A stretch of 64,000 nucleotides of DNA, taken from contig JAACWQ010000002.1 in NCBI GenBank assembly GCA_009991965.1, positions 81,617-145,616 on the forward strand, read 5' to 3'. Shown in pieces: positions 4,745-24,230 of the stretch (its first letter is position 1; every line of letters starts with the position of its first letter). The stretch is from Minisyncoccota bacterium. GTDB taxonomy: Bacteria > Patescibacteriota > Microgenomatia > UBA1400 > PJMF01. The notes beneath the pieces are model-generated. The model searched no databases. It saw only the letters and a program-made list of their open reading frames with translations, and was not told the DNA's origin. Position numbers and translations under genes: made by a program.

Positions 4745-4994
4745 ATTCTTCTAGTTGAGCAAAAATTTGAGCAATTTGTTCTGCTGAAGCATTAAAAAAA
4801 ATTATTTTTGAAAAACCAGGGAAAGGGTTGAGCACCAGCATTGTGCAGTCTGAAAATAAATCTGGCTCTTTTCGTTGTAAGCCTTTTAATTGAACAGCAG
4901 CTTCGTTGGTTACAAGTCTTTCACTATTTAGTCCCATAATGTATTTTACCACGACTAAGCAACCTGCACTTGCTTTTCCTTATTACTTTTGCAT

Positions 4995-5160
4995 ATAGTG
5001 TCTTTGCTGTGGAACACGGTGAGAATCCGTGACTGTGCCGCAACGGTGTTTGGGTTTACCCAAAAGTCCGATCTTCAGCACACTACAATCTGACGCGCAT
5101 CGGGAATTTTCAATAAAGTAGTGTGAGCCTCCACAGCGGTATAAAGTACGTAGCTGTCTG
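4995..5160 (+). promoter_or_regulatory. candidate cobalamin (B12) riboswitch in 5' leader
   Basis: 425-nt non-coding leader. The segment GGAACACGGTGAGAATCCGTGACTGTGCCGCAACGGTG resembles the cobalamin-riboswitch core (compare E. coli btuB leader AGTGCGAATCTGGAGCTGACGCGCAGCGGTAA). Long-range pairing GCTGTGG / CCACAGC. Downstream operon encodes a DUF4430 protein. Confidence 0.4.
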
Positions 5161-5184
5161 TAACATCAGGTGGTAAGGAGGTGT

Positions 5185-5883
5185 ATGGTAGAAATAATTT
5201 CAAGTAAAGTGAGATATGAGGGCTGGTATGGCGATTTGCCTGAAATTGCTGCAGCTCAGAGTCTAAGTGAGTTGGGCTTATTTGCTCGACAACTTGGTGC
5301 AGAGTTGTATGGCTTTACTGGAGAGGCCTCTCAGCAAATGAGAACGTTATTTGTGGGATTGCCGCATGGAGTTTTGGAGGTTTGGGGACAATTGTTAGAA
5401 ACACAAGCTGCAGGAGCGCTGCGGCAAAAATTTGGCAAGCCAAAAGAGGAACTGGTAGGTGCACAATTTGTAGCAGCAGAGTTGACAGATCGGGCAGAGG
5501 GAGCGGCTGGCAAACTTACTGAGCTTCGGAGTGATCTATTGGCAAAGTATGAGCAATTTCAACAAATTTTGATGCAACAGCTCGCAGTAAAATTGGCGGA
5601 GCTTGCCGCAGTGCAAGAACGGATACAAGCCAATAAAACTGCGTTACACACTACTGAAGAGCCAAGGCATATTTTGGCAAAAGTAGAGTATAAAGCAGCA
5701 AAAGATACCGGCACAGAAGTTGTCAGTCGGGATCAGGTACATTTACTACAAATACAAAAAGAAATTACCGTACTGCAGGAAGCATTAGGGTCATTTTTTG
5801 CCCCTTTGGGAGTTGTATTGCAAGAAGTCAGGCAAATGATGACAGTGGCTCCACTAGATGCAAACAAAGCGGTGCCCGTGTAG
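5185..5883 (+). CDS. hypothetical coiled-coil protein
   Basis: ATG at 5185 with AAGGAGG 6 nt upstream. The ORF track started at an upstream GTG. Helical, charged protein with no recognised domain. Confidence 0.5.
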   Translation: MVEIISSKVRYEGWYGDLPEIAAAQSLSELGLFARQLGAELYGFTGEASQQMRTLFVGLPHGVLEVWGQLLETQAAGALRQKFGKPKEELVGAQFVAAELTDRAEGAAGKLTELRSDLLAKYEQFQQILMQQLAVKLAELAAVQERIQANKTALHTTEEPRHILAKVEYKAAKDTGTEVVSRDQVHLLQIQKEITVLQEALGSFFAPLGVVLQEVRQMMTVAPLDANKAVPV

Positions 5884-17624: not shown

Positions 17625-18123
17625 GGGAGAACAAGAGGGAATCAGCCTGGTTTTTTAGGGGTATTGCTTTAGTACCTGCTGAGGATTGGCTAGAGTCCCA
17701 AAAGCAGCATTTTTACCGAGTTTGTGTGGGCGTTTATTGGTAGTTTTATATTTTGTAATCGAAGAAAATGGGGTAGAGTGACAAAAAAGAGAACCAGGCG
17801 AAAAAAGGGAAGAGTGATATAGTTTGATATACTTGTGATTGTGTGGATAACTTTAATAATTATAGGACTTTACCAGGTTAGAATGCAGGAATTATGCAAT
17901 TATTATGATGTATGTGATCGTGAAACGCAGAATACCCGAAGCCTTATTTGCAGAATCCTCGGAGGAGTGCTGTTCCTGGCAGAGCCACTATTTCTAAGTA
18001 ATTCATTAGTATGCACAAAGCAGACATGGAATGTGACATACGTTTCCAATTAGTAGCTTGTTCCTCACTCTCCCCACGCAAAAGGAGCGATTTTGTCTTC
18101 AGAGCGTTACTGGTGTTTGTTCT

Positions 18124-18152
18124 ATGTCGCACAATATTACTTTTGCGACATA
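18124..18152. repeat. inverted repeat ATGTCGCA-N13-TGCGACAT
   Basis: Perfect 8-bp inverted repeat with 13-nt spacer, ~520 nt upstream of the recombinase gene. Weak resemblance to a dif half-site (GCGACATAATGT). Confidence 0.3.
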
Positions 18153-18677
18153 ATGTCTGATTGTGACGAGAGTGCTGTTTTGTTGCAAATATTCTGCTGC
18201 GTTGTTCTTTAGTTAATCTACATTTCTTGTAACACTAGAAACTCCCTCTATCTCAACGTATATTTGCCCGTCTTTTAAATAAAAAGCCGTTTTTGGGCTA
18301 TTTCGGAGGTCAGAATATTACTCGAGTGATTCATAAGGTTGATACATCAATTAATAAATGATATTGATAGTTGTATTTTTTTTGAGAAATTAGTAATTTG
18401 AGGAAATTCGTTGTTTTTGTTTAGCGTCTGCTTGTTAGCTTTTATTTTTTGTTGAGCCCCAAGCTTGTCCAAGGACTGAAGCTGGTAGTCGCCAGGCAAT
18501 GTCGTTGGGTAGCTTTGGTGTGTATTAGATAGTAATCAAACAGTATCAAATAATAACAAACTATTTCAAATTTATTGTTATTATAAACATTGATACACCA
18601 GTCTTTTCTTGACTTACTCTAGATTATCAGTCAATTCTCTTCTCTGCTAGTTTTGGCTTGAGGTTTATAATGGGCGA

Positions 18678-19631
18678 ATGGCTATAGTATCTACAGATCC
18701 CAGTGTTGCACTCACCTTGTTTCTTGAGCACCTTGAAGTGGAGCGAAACGTCAGTCGCTTAACCATCCGCAACTACAGACACTATTTGCAGCGCTTTTGT
18801 GACTGGTTTAACCAGGCAGGACATGAAGATCTGCGCAAATTAGATCTCGAGGTAGTACGGCAGTACAGAGTATACCTCTCGAGGTACAGTGATGAACAGG
18901 GTAGAACCCTCTCAAAACGTACACAAAGCTATTATACTATTGCTTTACGCAGCTGGCTCAAGTTTTTGATAAAACGAGACGCTCCAGTCTTGCACCCAGA
19001 GAAAATCGATCTGCCTCGCGGTGAGTCTCTTCCAATGAAGTTTCTCTCAATTGATAAGGTAGAAAATTTATTGTCACAGCCGTCTATTTCTACTATATCG
19101 GGCTTGCGTGATAAGGCAATATTGGAGGTCCTCTTCTCTACCGGACTCCGGGTAAGTGAGCTCGTAAACCTCAATCGAGAGCAAATCAATCTAGAAAGCC
19201 AAGAATTTGGAGTTATTGGCAAAGGACGTCGTCCTCGAGTAGTCTTCTTGAGTGATAGAGCTGTCTCTTGGTTGGATCGCTGGCTTCGTCAGAGGCAAGA
19301 TCATTGGCGTCCTGTTTTTATTCGTTTTTCTGGAAAAATAGCGACCCCGGATGAGGACGGAGAAAACATGCGTTTAACAACTCGAAGCATACAAAGAATT
19401 GTTGATATCTATGCCAAGAAGGCGCATCTGCCACTTAAGATAAGTCCACACGGCCTCAGGCACAGTTTTGCAACTGACCTTTTGGCCAACGGCGCTGGCC
19501 TTCGAGACGTTCAAGAAATGCTTGGACATAAAAGTATTGCCACGACGCAAATTTACACGCATGTGACTCGTCCACAGCTAAAAAAGATTCACCAGCGATT
19601 TCACTCGAAGGAACCTCAAGGCCAAAATTAG
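18678..19631 (+). CDS. tyrosine site-specific recombinase (XerC/XerD family)
   Basis: C-terminal catalytic region LRHSFATDLLANGAGLRDVQEMLGHKSIATTQIYTHV contains the R-H-R-Y motifs. N-terminal SAM-like core-binding domain. Confidence 0.85.
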   Translation: MAIVSTDPSVALTLFLEHLEVERNVSRLTIRNYRHYLQRFCDWFNQAGHEDLRKLDLEVVRQYRVYLSRYSDEQGRTLSKRTQSYYTIALRSWLKFLIKRDAPVLHPEKIDLPRGESLPMKFLSIDKVENLLSQPSISTISGLRDKAILEVLFSTGLRVSELVNLNREQINLESQEFGVIGKGRRPRVVFLSDRAVSWLDRWLRQRQDHWRPVFIRFSGKIATPDEDGENMRLTTRSIQRIVDIYAKKAHLPLKISPHGLRHSFATDLLANGAGLRDVQEMLGHKSIATTQIYTHVTRPQLKKIHQRFHSKEPQGQN

Positions 19632-19935
19632 CAGTCTTGATATAATACTGCTAATTGCTTAATTTTAGATATTCTTGCGGTATATCAATGTTTTTTTGTG
19701 TCAATTCTACCACTATCGATCAAACTCATTACTATAATATATAGATATACTTGGATACCATTATTAATATTAAAATATCTTTTGATGTACAAATTTAAAT
19801 AATAAACATATCAAAAAATATCAATATATAAATTAATAACTCAATAAATTTTTCTGCAGGGGAATATTAGATCCTTACCTTTTTTTTGCTTGCAGTTATA
19901 ATCACAGGTATTGATCCGTATTTGTTACGGAACAA

Positions 19936-20514
19936 ATGCACGATGGATATATACGCATGAACATCCACCTCATGGGCTCTCTCTTTGATAATCAGGCTGG
20001 CTATGCCGAAATTGCCGCTATTCTAGAATCAGAAGGTCATCACTTTGTTACTCGGTATTATTTGGAAAGAACACCAAAAAAATTAGAGGCTGAAAAACCA
20101 GAAGAGATGGAGTTGTTTTACAAAAAAGTCTTAAGTTGGATAAAAAAGGCAGATTTTGTCATTTTTGAGGTCTCTAACCCTTGTGTAGAGGTTGGTTATG
20201 ATCTTTCTATTGTGCTTAGTATGTCAAAACCAGTGCTCGTACTGTATAACGCGGAAAAAGGCGCTGTTCCCTACGGACTGAGAGGTCTACACCTCGAAAA
20301 ACTACAAGTTTCCTCTTATACGGACAAGAATCTCAAAGAAGTTCTGCTCCAGGCGCTTGATTGGGCAAGCGAACTTGCAAATATTCGCTTTGATTTTCCC
20401 CTAGATGCTGAAGCAGCTGAATTTCTTGATGCAGCTGCAACAAAGAAACAAGTTTCTAGAGTGGCCTTTTTGCAGCAGTTGCTGGAAAAAGAGAAGATCC
20501 GGGGACGTGGATAG
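19936..20514 (+). CDS. DNPH1/nucleoside 2-deoxyribosyltransferase-like domain fused to a C-terminal ribbon-helix-helix domain
   Basis: ADFVIFEVSNPCVEVGYDLSIVLSMSKPVLVLY parallels the RCL/DNPH1 core ADVVVAEVTQPSLGVGYELGRAVAFNKRILCLF. C-terminal IRFDFPLDAEAAEFLDAAATKKQVSRVAFLQQLLEKE looks like an RHH. Confidence 0.5.
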   Translation: MHDGYIRMNIHLMGSLFDNQAGYAEIAAILESEGHHFVTRYYLERTPKKLEAEKPEEMELFYKKVLSWIKKADFVIFEVSNPCVEVGYDLSIVLSMSKPVLVLYNAEKGAVPYGLRGLHLEKLQVSSYTDKNLKEVLLQALDWASELANIRFDFPLDAEAAEFLDAAATKKQVSRVAFLQQLLEKEKIRGRG

Positions 20515-20517
20515 TTG

Positions 20518-21129
20518 CTACTGATTATTTTTTTGATGATCTCGGACCAATTTTCTGAAAAACTCCGATTTACTCTGATGTTCCGCCTTAGCTACCTGCG
20601 TGATGTACCTATTGAGTTCTGCCGAAATCAGGCAGTTGAACCGAATGGCATTTGGCAACTCGAGTGCATCTCTAATGGAAAGTCGCAGCACTTGTTCCAG
20701 GTCAATATTGCTGTATTCGCAATGCATTGGTCCCACTACGCCGGTCTCTTCCAAGAGAAACGGCGAGGTATTTTCTTGATAGAGGATGATAGTTGGCCTG
20801 TCTTGGTCAAGTGAGTGTTTGATAAAATGCGCCAACGTAAGACTTGGGTGAGTTGTTTCAAAAACACAAATGTCTGATGCGGCAATAGCCGCCAAACTAG
20901 TTTTATAAAAAGAATCTTTTTCTGCGCTGTTCCAGTCTGCAATAATTGCATTTTTGGTTTTTTCTAGATAACGCTCTGTAAGTTCAACTGGAAGCTTATG
21001 GAGAACTTGGTAGATGCGCGCAAATGCAGCGGGAAACATCGAACGTGTTTTGGGGCTGGTAGAAAAGAATATTTTTTTGTTCTCACCCATGGTGATTGAA
21101 TCTATAGTCTCTTGTGCGCTATCATACAA
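20518..21129 (-). CDS. paralogous DNPH1-like domain + C-terminal RHH protein (predicted catalytic Glu of the GYELG motif absent)
   Basis: IFFSTS N-terminus. SDICVFETTHPSLTLAHFIKHSLDQDRPTIILYQ core. C-terminal IRFNCLISAELNRYITQVAKAEHQSKSEFFRKLVRDH is RHH-like. Convergent with the previous gene, with stop codons 3 nt apart. Confidence 0.5.
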   Translation of the reverse strand: MYDSAQETIDSITMGENKKIFFSTSPKTRSMFPAAFARIYQVLHKLPVELTERYLEKTKNAIIADWNSAEKDSFYKTSLAAIAASDICVFETTHPSLTLAHFIKHSLDQDRPTIILYQENTSPFLLEETGVVGPMHCEYSNIDLEQVLRLSIRDALELPNAIRFNCLISAELNRYITQVAKAEHQSKSEFFRKLVRDHQKNNQ

Positions 21130-21132
21130 CAG

Positions 21133-21855
21133 ATGAGAAAAAATGAGTCCGGCTTTGTTGTCATTGTTACGATGCTTATTATGGTTGGCTTGATTAGTCT
21201 GGGTCTCTCAGTGGCCAACCAAAGTACTGAGGATACAGCCGAGTCTGGCGATGAATCTCAGGCAGTTCGTGTGTTTAATGCCGCCGAGGCTGGTGTTGAA
21301 GAATTGTTGTCTGCTCCTTTAGTAGATTCAGGTGCTATTTTGGATCGAGCAGATCAGTTCGATGGTTCAGACATTCGCTACAGAGTAATGGAGCAATATA
21401 CTCTCGAAACTCACTTGCTCGAGGGTGGCACCGCTACGATTGATTTGCCAGGTGGATATGCTGGAAATATTATTATAAATTGGGATAGTGCTGCCGCACT
21501 GTTGATTGCAATTTATACTGATGATGCCAGCGTACAAACAGTTCAATACGTAGGTGCTAATCCGTATACAGCTGTACGCATTGCTGGGTTCGATTCAGCA
21601 GCCAACGTTTCGAGTAAGAGTCGGTATCAATTCACTGCTCCAGCAAATACCAAAATGGTTCGTATTAAGTCATTGCTTGCTGCCACCAATCTCATCGTTG
21701 AATCAAGTTTCCCTGATCCGCAATATCACACTGTCCGCTCTGAGGCTACCGGCGCAGACGGTGTGACCAGAACTATCGAGGTAAATAAAACCATAGAAGT
21801 ACCTCCTGCAATCCTCGACTACGCCGTGTATAGTGGAGGAAGTATTACTAAATAA
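21133..21855 (+). CDS. PilX-like minor pilin / pilus assembly protein
   Basis: Hydrophobic N-terminal helix GFVVIVTMLIMVGLISLGLSV followed by FNAAEAGVEELL (PilX_N-like AEAGL motif). Sits upstream of pilMNO. Confidence 0.45.
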   Translation: MRKNESGFVVIVTMLIMVGLISLGLSVANQSTEDTAESGDESQAVRVFNAAEAGVEELLSAPLVDSGAILDRADQFDGSDIRYRVMEQYTLETHLLEGGTATIDLPGGYAGNIIINWDSAAALLIAIYTDDASVQTVQYVGANPYTAVRIAGFDSAANVSSKSRYQFTAPANTKMVRIKSLLAATNLIVESSFPDPQYHTVRSEATGADGVTRTIEVNKTIEVPPAILDYAVYSGGSITK

Positions 21856-21863
21856 GAATTACT

Positions 21864-22874
21864 ATGTCTGCTGCCCTAGCCATAGATATCGGTACATATA
21901 GCATCAAAGCCATCGCTGGTGAGCCTGGTGATGTTGTGCAAATTAAGCGCGTTGCCGAGGTTTTCAATACTACAGGCATGGCAGTGCCAACTGATGACGC
22001 TTCAGCATCAAAATTAGCCCAGATTATCGAAGCATTATTTACAGATTATAGTTTTCCCCGAGATAATGTACATCTCTCTTTACCAGAGACAGTTGTTTCT
22101 TCCAAGGTCATTAGTATTCCTCGTCTAAACGATTCGGAGTTAGCGTCTGCAATTGGCTGGCAAGCAGAACAGCATATTCCGATCCCACCAGACGAACTCT
22201 CTCTCGAGTACCAGGTGCTCTATCGACCAAAAAAGAATGAGCAAGCGCTGATGCGTGTCTTAATTGTTGGTGTACGCAAGCAAATTGTCGCCCAGTACCT
22301 CTCTGTTTTTGGCCAAATTGGGATTGAACCAGTCCATGTCGAGACACAAATGCTTTCGGTGTTGCGCTCGTTGCACTTTGTGCCAGAAGATCCCACCACG
22401 CTAGTGGTGCACTTTGGTGCTTCTAGTATGAATTTGCTGATGATGCATCAGGGTGAGCTACAGTTTGTATTGTCACAACTCAACGGTGGTCAATTATTGA
22501 CCAAAACTCTTGAACAACGGGTTGGACTAGATTCCGTGCAGGCCGAACAATACAAGCGTACCTATGGATTACGAACAGATCAATTTGAAGGTAAAGTCGG
22601 ACAGGCGTTACTCCCTGCTTTGCAAGTGCTGTTTGCAGAGGTAAAGAAAGCCATTCAGTTTTTTGTCAGTCAGCATCCACAAGCTGCGGTTGAGCGCGTG
22701 GTTCTCTCTGGTGGTTCATCATTATTGCCCGATCTGGTGCAGTACGTTGCCACTGAACTTGGGACAGAGGTACTTATAGCTGCCCCTTTTGCAAATGCCT
22801 CTGGAGAAATTCCCGAAAAAATCAATCAACCAGGGATGATTGTCTGCATGGGCTTGCTCTCGCAGACAAAGTAG
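21864..22874 (+). CDS. pilM: type IV pilus assembly protein PilM
   Basis: Actin-like ATPase N-terminus LAIDIGTYSIKAI. Around 336 aa. Confidence 0.8.
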   Translation: MSAALAIDIGTYSIKAIAGEPGDVVQIKRVAEVFNTTGMAVPTDDASASKLAQIIEALFTDYSFPRDNVHLSLPETVVSSKVISIPRLNDSELASAIGWQAEQHIPIPPDELSLEYQVLYRPKKNEQALMRVLIVGVRKQIVAQYLSVFGQIGIEPVHVETQMLSVLRSLHFVPEDPTTLVVHFGASSMNLLMMHQGELQFVLSQLNGGQLLTKTLEQRVGLDSVQAEQYKRTYGLRTDQFEGKVGQALLPALQVLFAEVKKAIQFFVSQHPQAAVERVVLSGGSSLLPDLVQYVATELGTEVLIAAPFANASGEIPEKINQPGMIVCMGLLSQTK

Positions 22875-22878
22875 CATC

Positions 22879-23445
22879 ATGCCAAGGAATATCAACTTTG
22901 TTCGTGACCGCCAACAAAAAGTAGCTCAGACTGAGCTTACTGATCAAAAAACTCTCATAGTTACGGTTAGTATATTTGCCGCTCTACTTGTTATCTCACT
23001 GGGTGCTACAGGTGTGGGTTGGTGGTTTGGAAATCAAGTGAAAACAGTTATTGCACAACAAAAATCTCAAGAATCTGCGATTGTGCAACAACAACCTATC
23101 GAGGAATCGTATACTATTTTTGCACACAAACTGCGAGTGCTCCGTGATTTATTTGGTAACCGCAAGAACAAACAGACGAGTATCAAATTTTTCAGCGAGT
23201 ACTTTGGTTCTGAGGTGATCGTGAGTCAACTGTCGTATGACAGCGAGGAAGAAGTTTTGACCTTTGTCTTGGACTCTAAAGATATTTTTGTGCTCAACAG
23301 TGTTTTTGAAAAATTGCAAAGTACTGAGCTGCGCACACTCTACCCTACTCTGCAGTATGGTGGTTTAAATCGTAGTGAGTCTGGGCGTTATGGATTGAAA
23401 CTCACAGTGACACTGCCGAAGTATGTCCTACAGAAAGCATCATGA
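22879..23445 (+). CDS. pilN: type IV pilus assembly protein PilN-like
   Basis: Single N-terminal TM followed by a coiled coil. Position is immediately after pilM. Confidence 0.55.
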   Translation: MPRNINFVRDRQQKVAQTELTDQKTLIVTVSIFAALLVISLGATGVGWWFGNQVKTVIAQQKSQESAIVQQQPIEESYTIFAHKLRVLRDLFGNRKNKQTSIKFFSEYFGSEVIVSQLSYDSEEEVLTFVLDSKDIFVLNSVFEKLQSTELRTLYPTLQYGGLNRSESGRYGLKLTVTLPKYVLQKAS

Positions 23446-24230
23446 AAGAAAAGAAGCCAAGTTTTAACCTCCACCTTTTCCTCCATATGCGCCAAAAACT
23501 CGTGATTGCAATTGGAGTTGGTTTTGCTGCAGCCCTAGTTGTATTTTTCCTTGGTGTGCCACAATTCCAAAAGATTTTCGAAACACAAGCCAAGCTCCAA
23601 AAGGAGACCACGCGTCTCAACAAGCTAAAGCAGAAATTAAGTGAGCTTGACAGTATCACGTATGAACCAGCATTTGGACAAGTTGCATTTATTTCAGAAA
23701 CGCTTCCATCCAAAAAACCACTCCTAGAATTGCTTACTAGTCTCTACGCGGTCACTCAAAAATCAGGTGTAGTAGTCGATGATTTTTCGATTAGTCCAGG
23801 TTTAGTGGCGACCACTGCAGCTGAGCTGAGCCAAGCGTCAAAGACGCAAACTGCTGGATATGACACCCTCGAGTTGAAGTTGTCTGTAACAGGTTCGTTT
23901 GAACAATTGCAAGACTTTATTTTATTGACCGAAACAGTGACTCCATTTACGACCATCACTTCGTTTGGCCTCAATGCCTCATTTGGTGAGACCACTGTAG
24001 ATGAAAAAGACAAGTTTACTGCTACGCTCGTTACCAATACGTTCTTTTTTACGAAGCCAATCTCTGTCTCGCTCGAGCAGGCACTGCCAAAACTTGCCGA
24101 GGAAGACTACATTGTATTATCTGAACTTTCTGGTTATGAACGTATTGAGTTGCCAGAACAATCCACCATTCTTGGCGGTGGTTCAATAGATTTCTTTCAA
24201 GTAGAGGGATTTACATTCCCAAGCAATTAA
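23442..24230 (+). CDS. type IV pilus assembly protein PilO-like
   Basis: N-terminal TM plus coiled coil (QAKLQKETTRLNKLKQKLSEL). 4-nt overlap with pilN. Confidence 0.45.
   Translation: MKEKKPSFNLHLFLHMRQKLVIAIGVGFAAALVVFFLGVPQFQKIFETQAKLQKETTRLNKLKQKLSELDSITYEPAFGQVAFISETLPSKKPLLELLTSLYAVTQKSGVVVDDFSISPGLVATTAAELSQASKTQTAGYDTLELKLSVTGSFEQLQDFILLTETVTPFTTITSFGLNASFGETTVDEKDKFTATLVTNTFFFTKPISVSLEQALPKLAEEDYIVLSELSGYERIELPEQSTILGGGSIDFFQVEGFTFPSN

Follow-up and report, generated by a model that had tools for sequence, protein, structure and literature searches.

The described enzyme closest to the proteins of this study is DNPH1 (Rcl), a 2'-deoxynucleoside 5'-phosphate N-hydrolase also named 5-hydroxymethyl-dUMP N-hydrolase. 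The conserved active-site residues of human DNPH1 are Tyr24, Asp80 and Glu104, the last being the essential nucleophile; exchange of the tyrosine for phenylalanine in the rat enzyme leads to a 280-fold loss in kcat/KM, and the phosphate is bound through main-chain contacts of Ile29, Arg30, Gly31 and Gly100, through Ser98 and through a Ser128 that the partner subunit contributes (PMC10483697). In rat numbering, which is the human numbering minus 11, Tyr13 (human Tyr24) hydrogen-bonds the nucleophile and Asp69 (human Asp80) is the general acid/base. Among regulators, NikR has a ribbon-helix-helix (RHH) dimer whose binding to the operator is tuned by a separate small-ligand domain, itself dimeric or tetrameric, and PutA, BirA and NadR join an enzyme-family domain to a DNA-binding domain, which in PutA is also an RHH. 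Here we describe two convergent genes in a 64,000-nucleotide (nt) stretch of a Minisyncoccota contig (JAACWQ010000002.1; this whole stretch is called the window, and positions follow its numbering), gene A on the plus strand and gene B on the minus strand, whose products carry a DNPH1-like domain followed by a C-terminal RHH. We propose, with a probability of about 0.5, that A and B are ligand-sensing RHH one-component transcription regulators of chromosomal genes. Protein relatives are designated by P-numbers and the loci of relatives by L-numbers.

Gene A (19957..20514, plus strand) encodes a protein of 185 amino acids (aa) and gene B (20518..21090, minus strand) its paralogue of 190 aa. The maximal open reading frames (ORFs) are longer, 19936-20514 (192 aa) and 20518-21129 (203 aa, from a TTG at 21129); both lie where the sequence-only reading had placed them, and every peptide string quoted there is present. 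Homologue alignments and the conservation of the upstream DNA indicate ATG 19957 (MNIHLMGS...) as the true start of A: it is kept in the related loci L085 and L086, in which the upstream ATG 19936 is not kept. The true start of B is ATG 21090 (MGENKK...), where the homologues begin, the TTG at 21129 not being conserved. The genes converge with their stops 3 nt apart, as had been noted (the TAG of A ends at 20514 and the stop of B is 20518-20520). The A protein has the same sequence as P0001, which is annotated as a "hypothetical protein" in a metagenome-assembled genome of Candidatus Pacebacteria (phylum Minisyncoccota/Patescibacteria). The paralogy of the pair, also proposed earlier, is confirmed by BLASTP (E=7e-15, 26% identity across 148 aa), and sequence comparison indicates that the duplication is ancient, each protein being nearer to other branches of the family than to its partner. 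When A and B were compared with their orthologues in three related genomes, pN was 0.13-0.22 and pS 0.66-0.88 with saturated synonymous sites, giving a pN/pS of approximately 0.17-0.28 for A and 0.19-0.24 for B. The low pN relative to the saturated pS indicates that both are real genes under purifying selection.

The N-terminal domain comprises aa 1-137 of A (19957..20367, plus strand) and aa 1-144 of B (20659..21090, minus strand). The A protein matches rat Rcl/DNPH1 directly (E=5e-10, residues 9-133) and the Pfam family PF05014 (Nuc_deoxyrib_tr) at E=7e-6, with 26.5 bits, just under the gathering cut-off of 28.8 bits; PF05014 was matched at E<0.01 by 85 of 145 relatives and gave no match to B in the Pfam scan. 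A profile of 145 family members searched against the PDB matched DNPH1 chains along the whole domain with E=1.7e-22 to 2e-18, DNPH1/Rcl being the sole solved family matched significantly; one faint TIR match was found besides, and classical nucleoside 2-deoxyribosyltransferases gave no match at E<=0.01 in the same search. The AlphaFold (AF2) model of A has a predicted local distance difference test score (pLDDT) of 76, and the top 50 Foldseek matches to this model were all DNPH1 structures, with a probability of 1.0 and a target template-modelling (TM) score of 0.81-0.87. The motifs shared with DNPH1/Rcl are the invariant AD...(F/A)E..xPS..G, KP..L and the Tyr of WDY. These results bear out the DNPH1-like core first recognised from the letters of the window.

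In A and B this domain has lost its catalytic residues. The position of the tyrosine (human Tyr24, rat Tyr13) is occupied by His4 in A and Phe8 in B, that of the general acid/base (Asp80, Asp69) by Val58 and Ser65, and that of the nucleophile (Glu104, Glu93) by Asp82 and Phe89, respectively, so that the acidic residue described earlier for the plus-strand copy and its lack in the minus-strand copy are both found. In the phosphate site, Ser98 (rat Ser87) corresponds to Cys76 in A and Ser83 in B, and Ser128' (rat Ser117') of the partner subunit to Pro105 and Pro110. The loop Ile29-Arg30-Gly31 (rat Ile18-Arg19-Gly20) is replaced by Leu-Phe-Asp followed by a 3-residue deletion in A and by Pro-Lys-Thr in B, the segments aligned to the GSIRGG of DNPH1 being GSLFDN and STSPKT. 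The 5'-phosphate site of DNPH1 (GSIRGG loop, Ser87 and Ser117') is not preserved in A and B; since the loop contacts of DNPH1 are made by the main chain, both proteins could still bind a phosphate. An Asp at the Asp80 position is found in none of the 160 family members compared. The GYD motif containing Asp82 is retained in all seven close orthologues of A, and the more distant orthologue at L005 has a Met at this position. As neither A (His/Val/Asp) nor B (Phe/Ser/Phe) keeps the Tyr/Asp/Glu set, a DNPH1-type hydrolase activity is very unlikely, and the hydrolysis of deoxynucleoside monophosphates (dNMP) that had been suggested for A is unlikely. The nucleophile of the other described relatives of this fold, the MilB/BlsM CMP hydrolases and the nucleoside 2-deoxyribosyltransferases (PF05014), is likewise absent in A and B.

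For the last 45 residues, an extended segment followed by two helices is predicted. In A (20380..20511, plus strand) this beta-alpha-alpha unit has the strand IRFDFPL; in B (20521..20649, minus strand) the strand is IRFNCLIS. When the C-terminal profile was searched against the PDB, the top 15 matches were essentially all RHH proteins, with CopG as the best (E=0.004); only two CopG matches reached E<0.01, those to NikR, Arc, AvtR and ORF56 being weaker, and the alignment of the profile with CopG by hhalign gave a probability of 91%. The B protein itself matches the Pfam model RHH_1 at E=0.048, and approximately a quarter of the relatives match RHH_1, RHH_3 or another RHH model, at E-values as low as 2e-6. 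The column statistics are in agreement with this assignment: in the strand (consensus R-F-N-F-F) the Arg is found in 157 of the 160 members and Asn or Thr in 152, and the helix-2 cap S/P-K/R-S is also kept across the family. B retains the strand Arg and Asn as well as an SKS opening helix 2. The conserved strand positions align with the corresponding residues of CopG, which contact DNA bases, and are the best-conserved part of the C-terminal domain. The RHH announced for both proteins is thus supported. The strand of B reads R-x-N and that of A R-x-D, at a position that is variable among the A orthologues; this would agree with A acting as part of a heteromer or as an accessory protein.

The proteins belong to a large and unannotated family. 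An exhaustive profile search against sequences clustered at 50% identity gave 1,561 cluster representatives at E<=1e-3, of which 778 reached E<=1e-10, and among the 150 matches listed nearly all are 180-199 aa long and span both domains; word-indexed homologue searches returned just 7-16 close relatives, even with an alignment as the query. The peptide pattern D[VTI]RFNFF[IV]S recovers the family in 192 species-representative GTDB genomes, in a scan that relied on a 25-sequence core alignment and whose single pattern biases the sample to one part of the family. The informative record titles are those of Collier-, Woese-, Shapiro- and Beckwithbacteria, Microgenomates and the Patescibacteria group, and the family is lineage-specific, essentially all of it belonging to the Patescibacteria/Microgenomates. 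Family genes were also observed in GTDB records titled uncultured Pseudomonadales, Bathyarchaeia, Methanoperedens and Methylococcaceae (L007, L009, L012, L024, L052, L055 and others); as these records show the Microgenomates gene order dnaX-ybaB-recR-...-cysS, they are taken as mislabelled or misbinned. Within 6 kb, one copy is present in 54 loci and two to five copies, mostly in same-strand tandem, in 31. A relative of the window organism carries five paralogues in a row with one methyltransferase gene between them (L001, 4841-9233 of that locus); this array adjoins BrnT/CopG and PIN toxin-antitoxin genes and an AAA_14/DUF4143 gene, which marks that side of the array as a variable region. P0021 (401 aa, on an 8.4-kb Logan contig) has two DNPH1-like domains approximately 120 residues apart and no RHH; an alternative DNA-binding domain was considered for its middle region and rejected, the region having no Pfam match.

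The family members that were looked up are all named only "hypothetical protein", the fusion of a DNPH1-like domain with an RHH has no family of its own in Pfam, NCBIfam or PADLOC, and full-text searching of the literature library yielded no description of it. The suggestion that this is not a described system is therefore upheld in that neither a family model nor a paper was found, and falls in that the fusion is not rare: it is common and forms a large lineage-specific family. The parts are already known, as is the logic of a ligand domain plus an RHH exemplified by NikR; new are the DNPH1-type domain in such a role, a family of this size and lineage specificity, and the division of that family into enzyme-paired members that keep the nucleophile Glu (Glu-type) and non-catalytic members. 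Little is known of gene regulation in the Candidate Phyla Radiation (CPR)/Patescibacteria and of how they handle the nucleotides which they are thought unable to make; the Microgenomates are thought to depend on scavenged nucleotides. The family offers a testable handle on both, with at least 1,500 clusters at 50% identity, up to five adjacent copies in genomes of approximately 1 Mb and repeated adjacency to genes of replication and recombination, to those of nucleoside kinases and to the type IV pilus operon. In humans DNPH1 is an anticancer drug target; here its fold would be repurposed as a probable sensor domain, and the natural variants of the family separate ligand binding from catalysis.

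Upstream of A, an AT-rich region (19632..19956, GC content 0.22-0.27) constitutes a candidate promoter/operator, with blocks conserved in L085 and L086. Common to the three genomes are an inverted repeat forming a xer-terminal hairpin (19626-19656), two ATCAA repeats 10 bp apart (at 19810 and 19820), a perfect TATAAT as the -10 element (19897-19902), a TCCGTA/TACGGA hairpin in the 5' untranslated region (19915-19931) and a T-run; a -35-like TTACCT lies at 19875-19880. These 325 bp contain the word ATATCAA, a motif chosen post hoc, 4 times, where local shuffles predict 0.32 occurrences. On the other side, B and the pilX-like gene are divergent and separated by a spacer of 42 bp between their ATG codons (21091..21132), which is near-invariant in five genomes with B proteins of only 63-77% identity. 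The AT-rich non-coding flanks described earlier are accordingly found on the A side, the B side having just this short spacer. It holds a promoter-like TTGAAT-18-TATCAT, a match not above chance for the region, which ends 7 nt before the pilX ATG and suggests a leaderless or near-leaderless mRNA for the pilus operon. The start of the pilX-like gene is probably ATG 21133 and not the TTG 21112 of the maximal ORF. A scan of 18200-21500 for promoters and terminators gave counts not above the shuffled expectation.

The operon beyond the spacer (21133..24230, plus strand) contains pilX-like, pilM, pilN-like and pilO-like genes of a type IV pilus, identified by PilX_N and, in the syntenic loci, by PilM_2 and PilO. 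B is always divergent from pilX across the near-invariant spacer, and a family gene adjoins pilX upstream in 19 of 54 loci that were picked by PilM alone and had enough upstream sequence. We judge this adjacency, a count confounded by shared ancestry, to be well beyond chance for a family with few copies per genome. With a family gene upstream in only those 19 loci, an obligatory link of the family to the pilus operon was rejected. In L091 and L116, whose PilM is 90-93% identical to that of the window, the family gene is present upstream of the operon, and in L092-L094, with a PilM 76% identical, it is not, which indicates that the arrangement of B and pilX was gained or lost recently in the clade.

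In the regulatory reading that we favour, the loss of hydrolase chemistry in A and B makes a ligand pocket the most likely role of the N-terminal domain, and this pocket would accommodate a small nucleoside- or nucleotide-like ligand. DNPH1-type and RHH domains both act as dimers, of which that of the RHH would read the DNA, and ligand occupancy at the N-domain dimer could shift the RHH dimer, or a dimer of dimers, on operator DNA, possibly as an A/B hetero-oligomer. The likely targets would be the genes' own promoters and, for B, also the type IV pilus operon that diverges from it. The analysis shows which domains are present, that the catalytic residues are lost, that both genes are under purifying selection in a syntenic chromosomal setting, how large the family is and that regulatory DNA is conserved; that the proteins bind a ligand and DNA, which genes they target and that A associates with B is what we infer in this scheme. 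The deoxynucleotide-sensing transcription factor imagined in the sequence-only reading is thereby kept in one half, nucleotide or nucleoside sensing still being the most plausible function, and given up for its hydrolytic half. NikR offers the nearest precedent, its RHH being among the C-terminal profile matches; the order of domains is reversed in the present family, where the RHH is C-terminal, and the sensor fold is DNPH1-like and not ACT-like as in NikR. DNPH1/Rcl itself differs in that the family adds the RHH, is prokaryotic and lineage-specific, and reaches up to 5 copies per locus.

Several observations weigh against a regulatory role. A keeps the acidic Asp82 at the nucleophile position, and the many relatives which keep Glu and Tyr and lie behind kinase, methyltransferase or radical-SAM genes look enzymatic. 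The linker to the RHH is modelled with low confidence, and monomer models cannot show a dimer. The pilus adjacency is absent in 35 of the 54 PilM-selected loci, close relatives included. Finally, no family-wide operator motif was significant by k-mer enrichment when 33 regions upstream of family genes and 71 regions upstream of cassettes (pairs of a family gene with an enzyme gene) were compared with approximately 390 other intergenic regions. The top words, ATCAAT and ATTGATA (of TTGATA type), resemble -35 or extended -10 promoter elements, and ATCAA-N5-ATCAA was found in 2 of 71 cassette-upstream regions against 1 of 391 other regions (p=0.06).

The enzymatic aspect of these relatives leads to the rival that fares best, in which A and B would be bifunctional enzyme-repressors such as PutA, BirA and NadR: the N-terminal domain would still break the N-glycosidic bond in a nucleotide or nucleoside, perhaps a modified one, Asp82 serving as the nucleophile in A, and the RHH would repress according to substrate load. 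The family indeed divides into two classes. In 68 of the 160 members the nucleophile Glu is kept, mostly accompanied by Tyr or His where rat DNPH1 has Tyr13; the non-Glu class, to which A and B belong, has Leu, Ile, Phe, Gln or similar residues at the nucleophile and more often keeps a Ser-x-Arg-Gly loop. As many as 48 of 73 Glu-type genes lie directly behind a co-directional enzyme gene, against 6 of 48 non-Glu genes, counts that carry a bias from both the search pattern and common ancestry. The upstream partners are subtype-specific and comprise radical-SAM proteins, five clusters of class I methyltransferases, a PfkB kinase, a P-loop kinase and a thymidine kinase; examples of such two-gene cassettes among L006-L084 are L015 5060-6579, L066 195-1499 and L033 4970-6570. 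Beyond its own orthogroup, A is closest to Glu-type proteins that have a methyltransferase as partner, and the GYD common to the close A orthologues points in the same direction. Against this, B has Phe at both the nucleophile and the Tyr13 positions, A lacks Tyr13 and Asp69 and shows the phosphate-loop deletion, its L005 orthologue has Met for the Asp, the general acid/base is missing from the whole family, and neither A nor B has a partner enzyme gene upstream. PutA, BirA and NadR are thus a model for the Glu-type relatives, whereas A and B look catalytically dead and share no homology with them beyond the RHH. The bifunctional explanation is attractive for the Glu-type proteins; for A and B the case is weak and we hold it unlikely.

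A broader reading combines both classes. The family would then be the main set of lineage-specific nucleotide-status regulators of the Microgenomates, in which B-like members tie the (deoxy)nucleotide pool to the pilus/DNA-uptake operon, Glu-type members form hydrolase-repressor salvage cassettes and A and B work as a heteromer. Non-catalytic members would act through the invariant 42-bp divergent promoter, the cassettes with nucleoside kinases, methyltransferases and radical-SAM enzymes would serve the salvage of (modified) nucleotides, and the convergent, terminator-less A and B genes might also interfere with each other's transcription. We regard this scheme as speculative and rather improbable as a whole.

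It is also conceivable that the RHH serves oligomerisation alone and takes no part in DNA binding or regulation, A and B then being metabolic enzymes or binding proteins. An RHH is an obligate dimer and could merely stabilise a DNPH1-type dimer, and the failure to find an operator motif would be in agreement with this. Against this, the residues aligned to the CopG strand are the best conserved of the domain across more than 150 divergent members, and several members score approximately 2e-6 with the DNA-binding models RHH_1 and RHH_3. We consider such a purely structural RHH a poor prospect beside a ligand-sensing regulator.

The chromosomal setting bears on the proposals of a mobile islet, an anti-phage module or a toxin-antitoxin pair. 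The tyrosine recombinase gene upstream of A, as first noted, is of XerC/D type (18678..19631, plus strand; Pfam Phage_integrase E=6e-40), its best NCBIfam matches, XerC and XerD, being under the equivalog cut-offs. L085 and L086, whose A proteins are 77% and 70% identical to that of the window, share with it the order TGT, LytR_C, TPR, YebC, membrane protein, 1-kb gap, Xer, A, B (minus strand), pilX, pilM, pilN, pilO, KH, S16 and RNase III, and as the Xer gene occupies the same position in both, it is read as a syntenic XerC/D-like housekeeping gene. Across the family the setting is either ybeY-dnaX-ybaB-recR-[enzyme]-family gene-...-cysS or directly upstream of the pilus operon. The tail-to-tail A/B pair is confined to the clade of the window (window, L001-L004, L005, L085-L087), with stop-to-stop distances from a 4-nt overlap to 54 nt, and B occurs without A in L088. 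The GC content of A and B is that of the neighbouring genes, without compositional anomaly, and no tRNA lies near the locus. When A, B and five relatives were scanned with PADLOC, the only match was a faint one in a single relative (DRT RT_UG31, E=0.003), which is treated as chance. Searches of IMG/VR, of GenBank phages and of PLSDB plasmids returned no copy of the family, and the matches to antitoxin models are only faint. SLOG/TIR-like sensors such as ThsA and ThsB have a distantly related Rossmann-like fold which senses or processes nucleotide-derived ligands, and weak matches to ThsB_TIR and to a TIR chain were seen, at a similarity far below that of DNPH1; the present family has neither a defence context nor an effector domain.

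This synteny, the ordinary composition and the lack of phage, plasmid and PADLOC matches all oppose a conflict-type function, and although the tight convergent pair with one more active-looking and one inactive-looking copy, the recombinase next door, the toxin-antitoxin genes beside the L001 array and the weak ThsB/TIR similarity of a few members could speak for it, a toxin-antitoxin-like pair, a nucleotide-depletion module or Xer-bounded cargo is largely refuted, since the two genes are convergent and not an operon, encode the same fusion protein, lie mostly as single-copy loci elsewhere in the family and have as neighbours housekeeping genes, among them recR, dnaX, cysS, pil genes and S16.

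Further observations concern the non-coding DNA of the window. Between the membrane-protein gene and xer, a gap of approximately 1 kb without a credible ORF (17625-18677; L085 3652-4712 and L086 3569-4697) contains blocks 90-100% identical in the three genomes, the flanking genes being only approximately 75% identical. The blocks include AAAAGGGAAGAGTGATATAGTTTGATATA and a perfect DnaA box TGTGGATAA at 17842-17850; another, CACTCTCCCCACG, is complementary to GGGAAGAGTGA approximately 250 nt upstream, and a GTCGCA/TGCGAC hairpin is found at 18126-18147. The relatives have insertions of 26-55 nt in the middle of the gap. A replication origin in the AT-rich or conserved non-coding DNA was considered and rejected, the DnaA box being single and not enriched. 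Nothing in Rfam matches the gap at E<=1 and its folding energy gives no signal of a non-coding RNA; it is retained as a candidate for an unclassified non-coding RNA or a regulatory region. Elsewhere in the window, an adenosylcobalamin (AdoCbl) riboswitch (55 bits) lies at 4985-5108, upstream of the ORF 5170-5883, and a short class A RNase P RNA at 55857-56145 covers 289 nt against a model of 367 positions, with 103 bits for a cut-off of 100.

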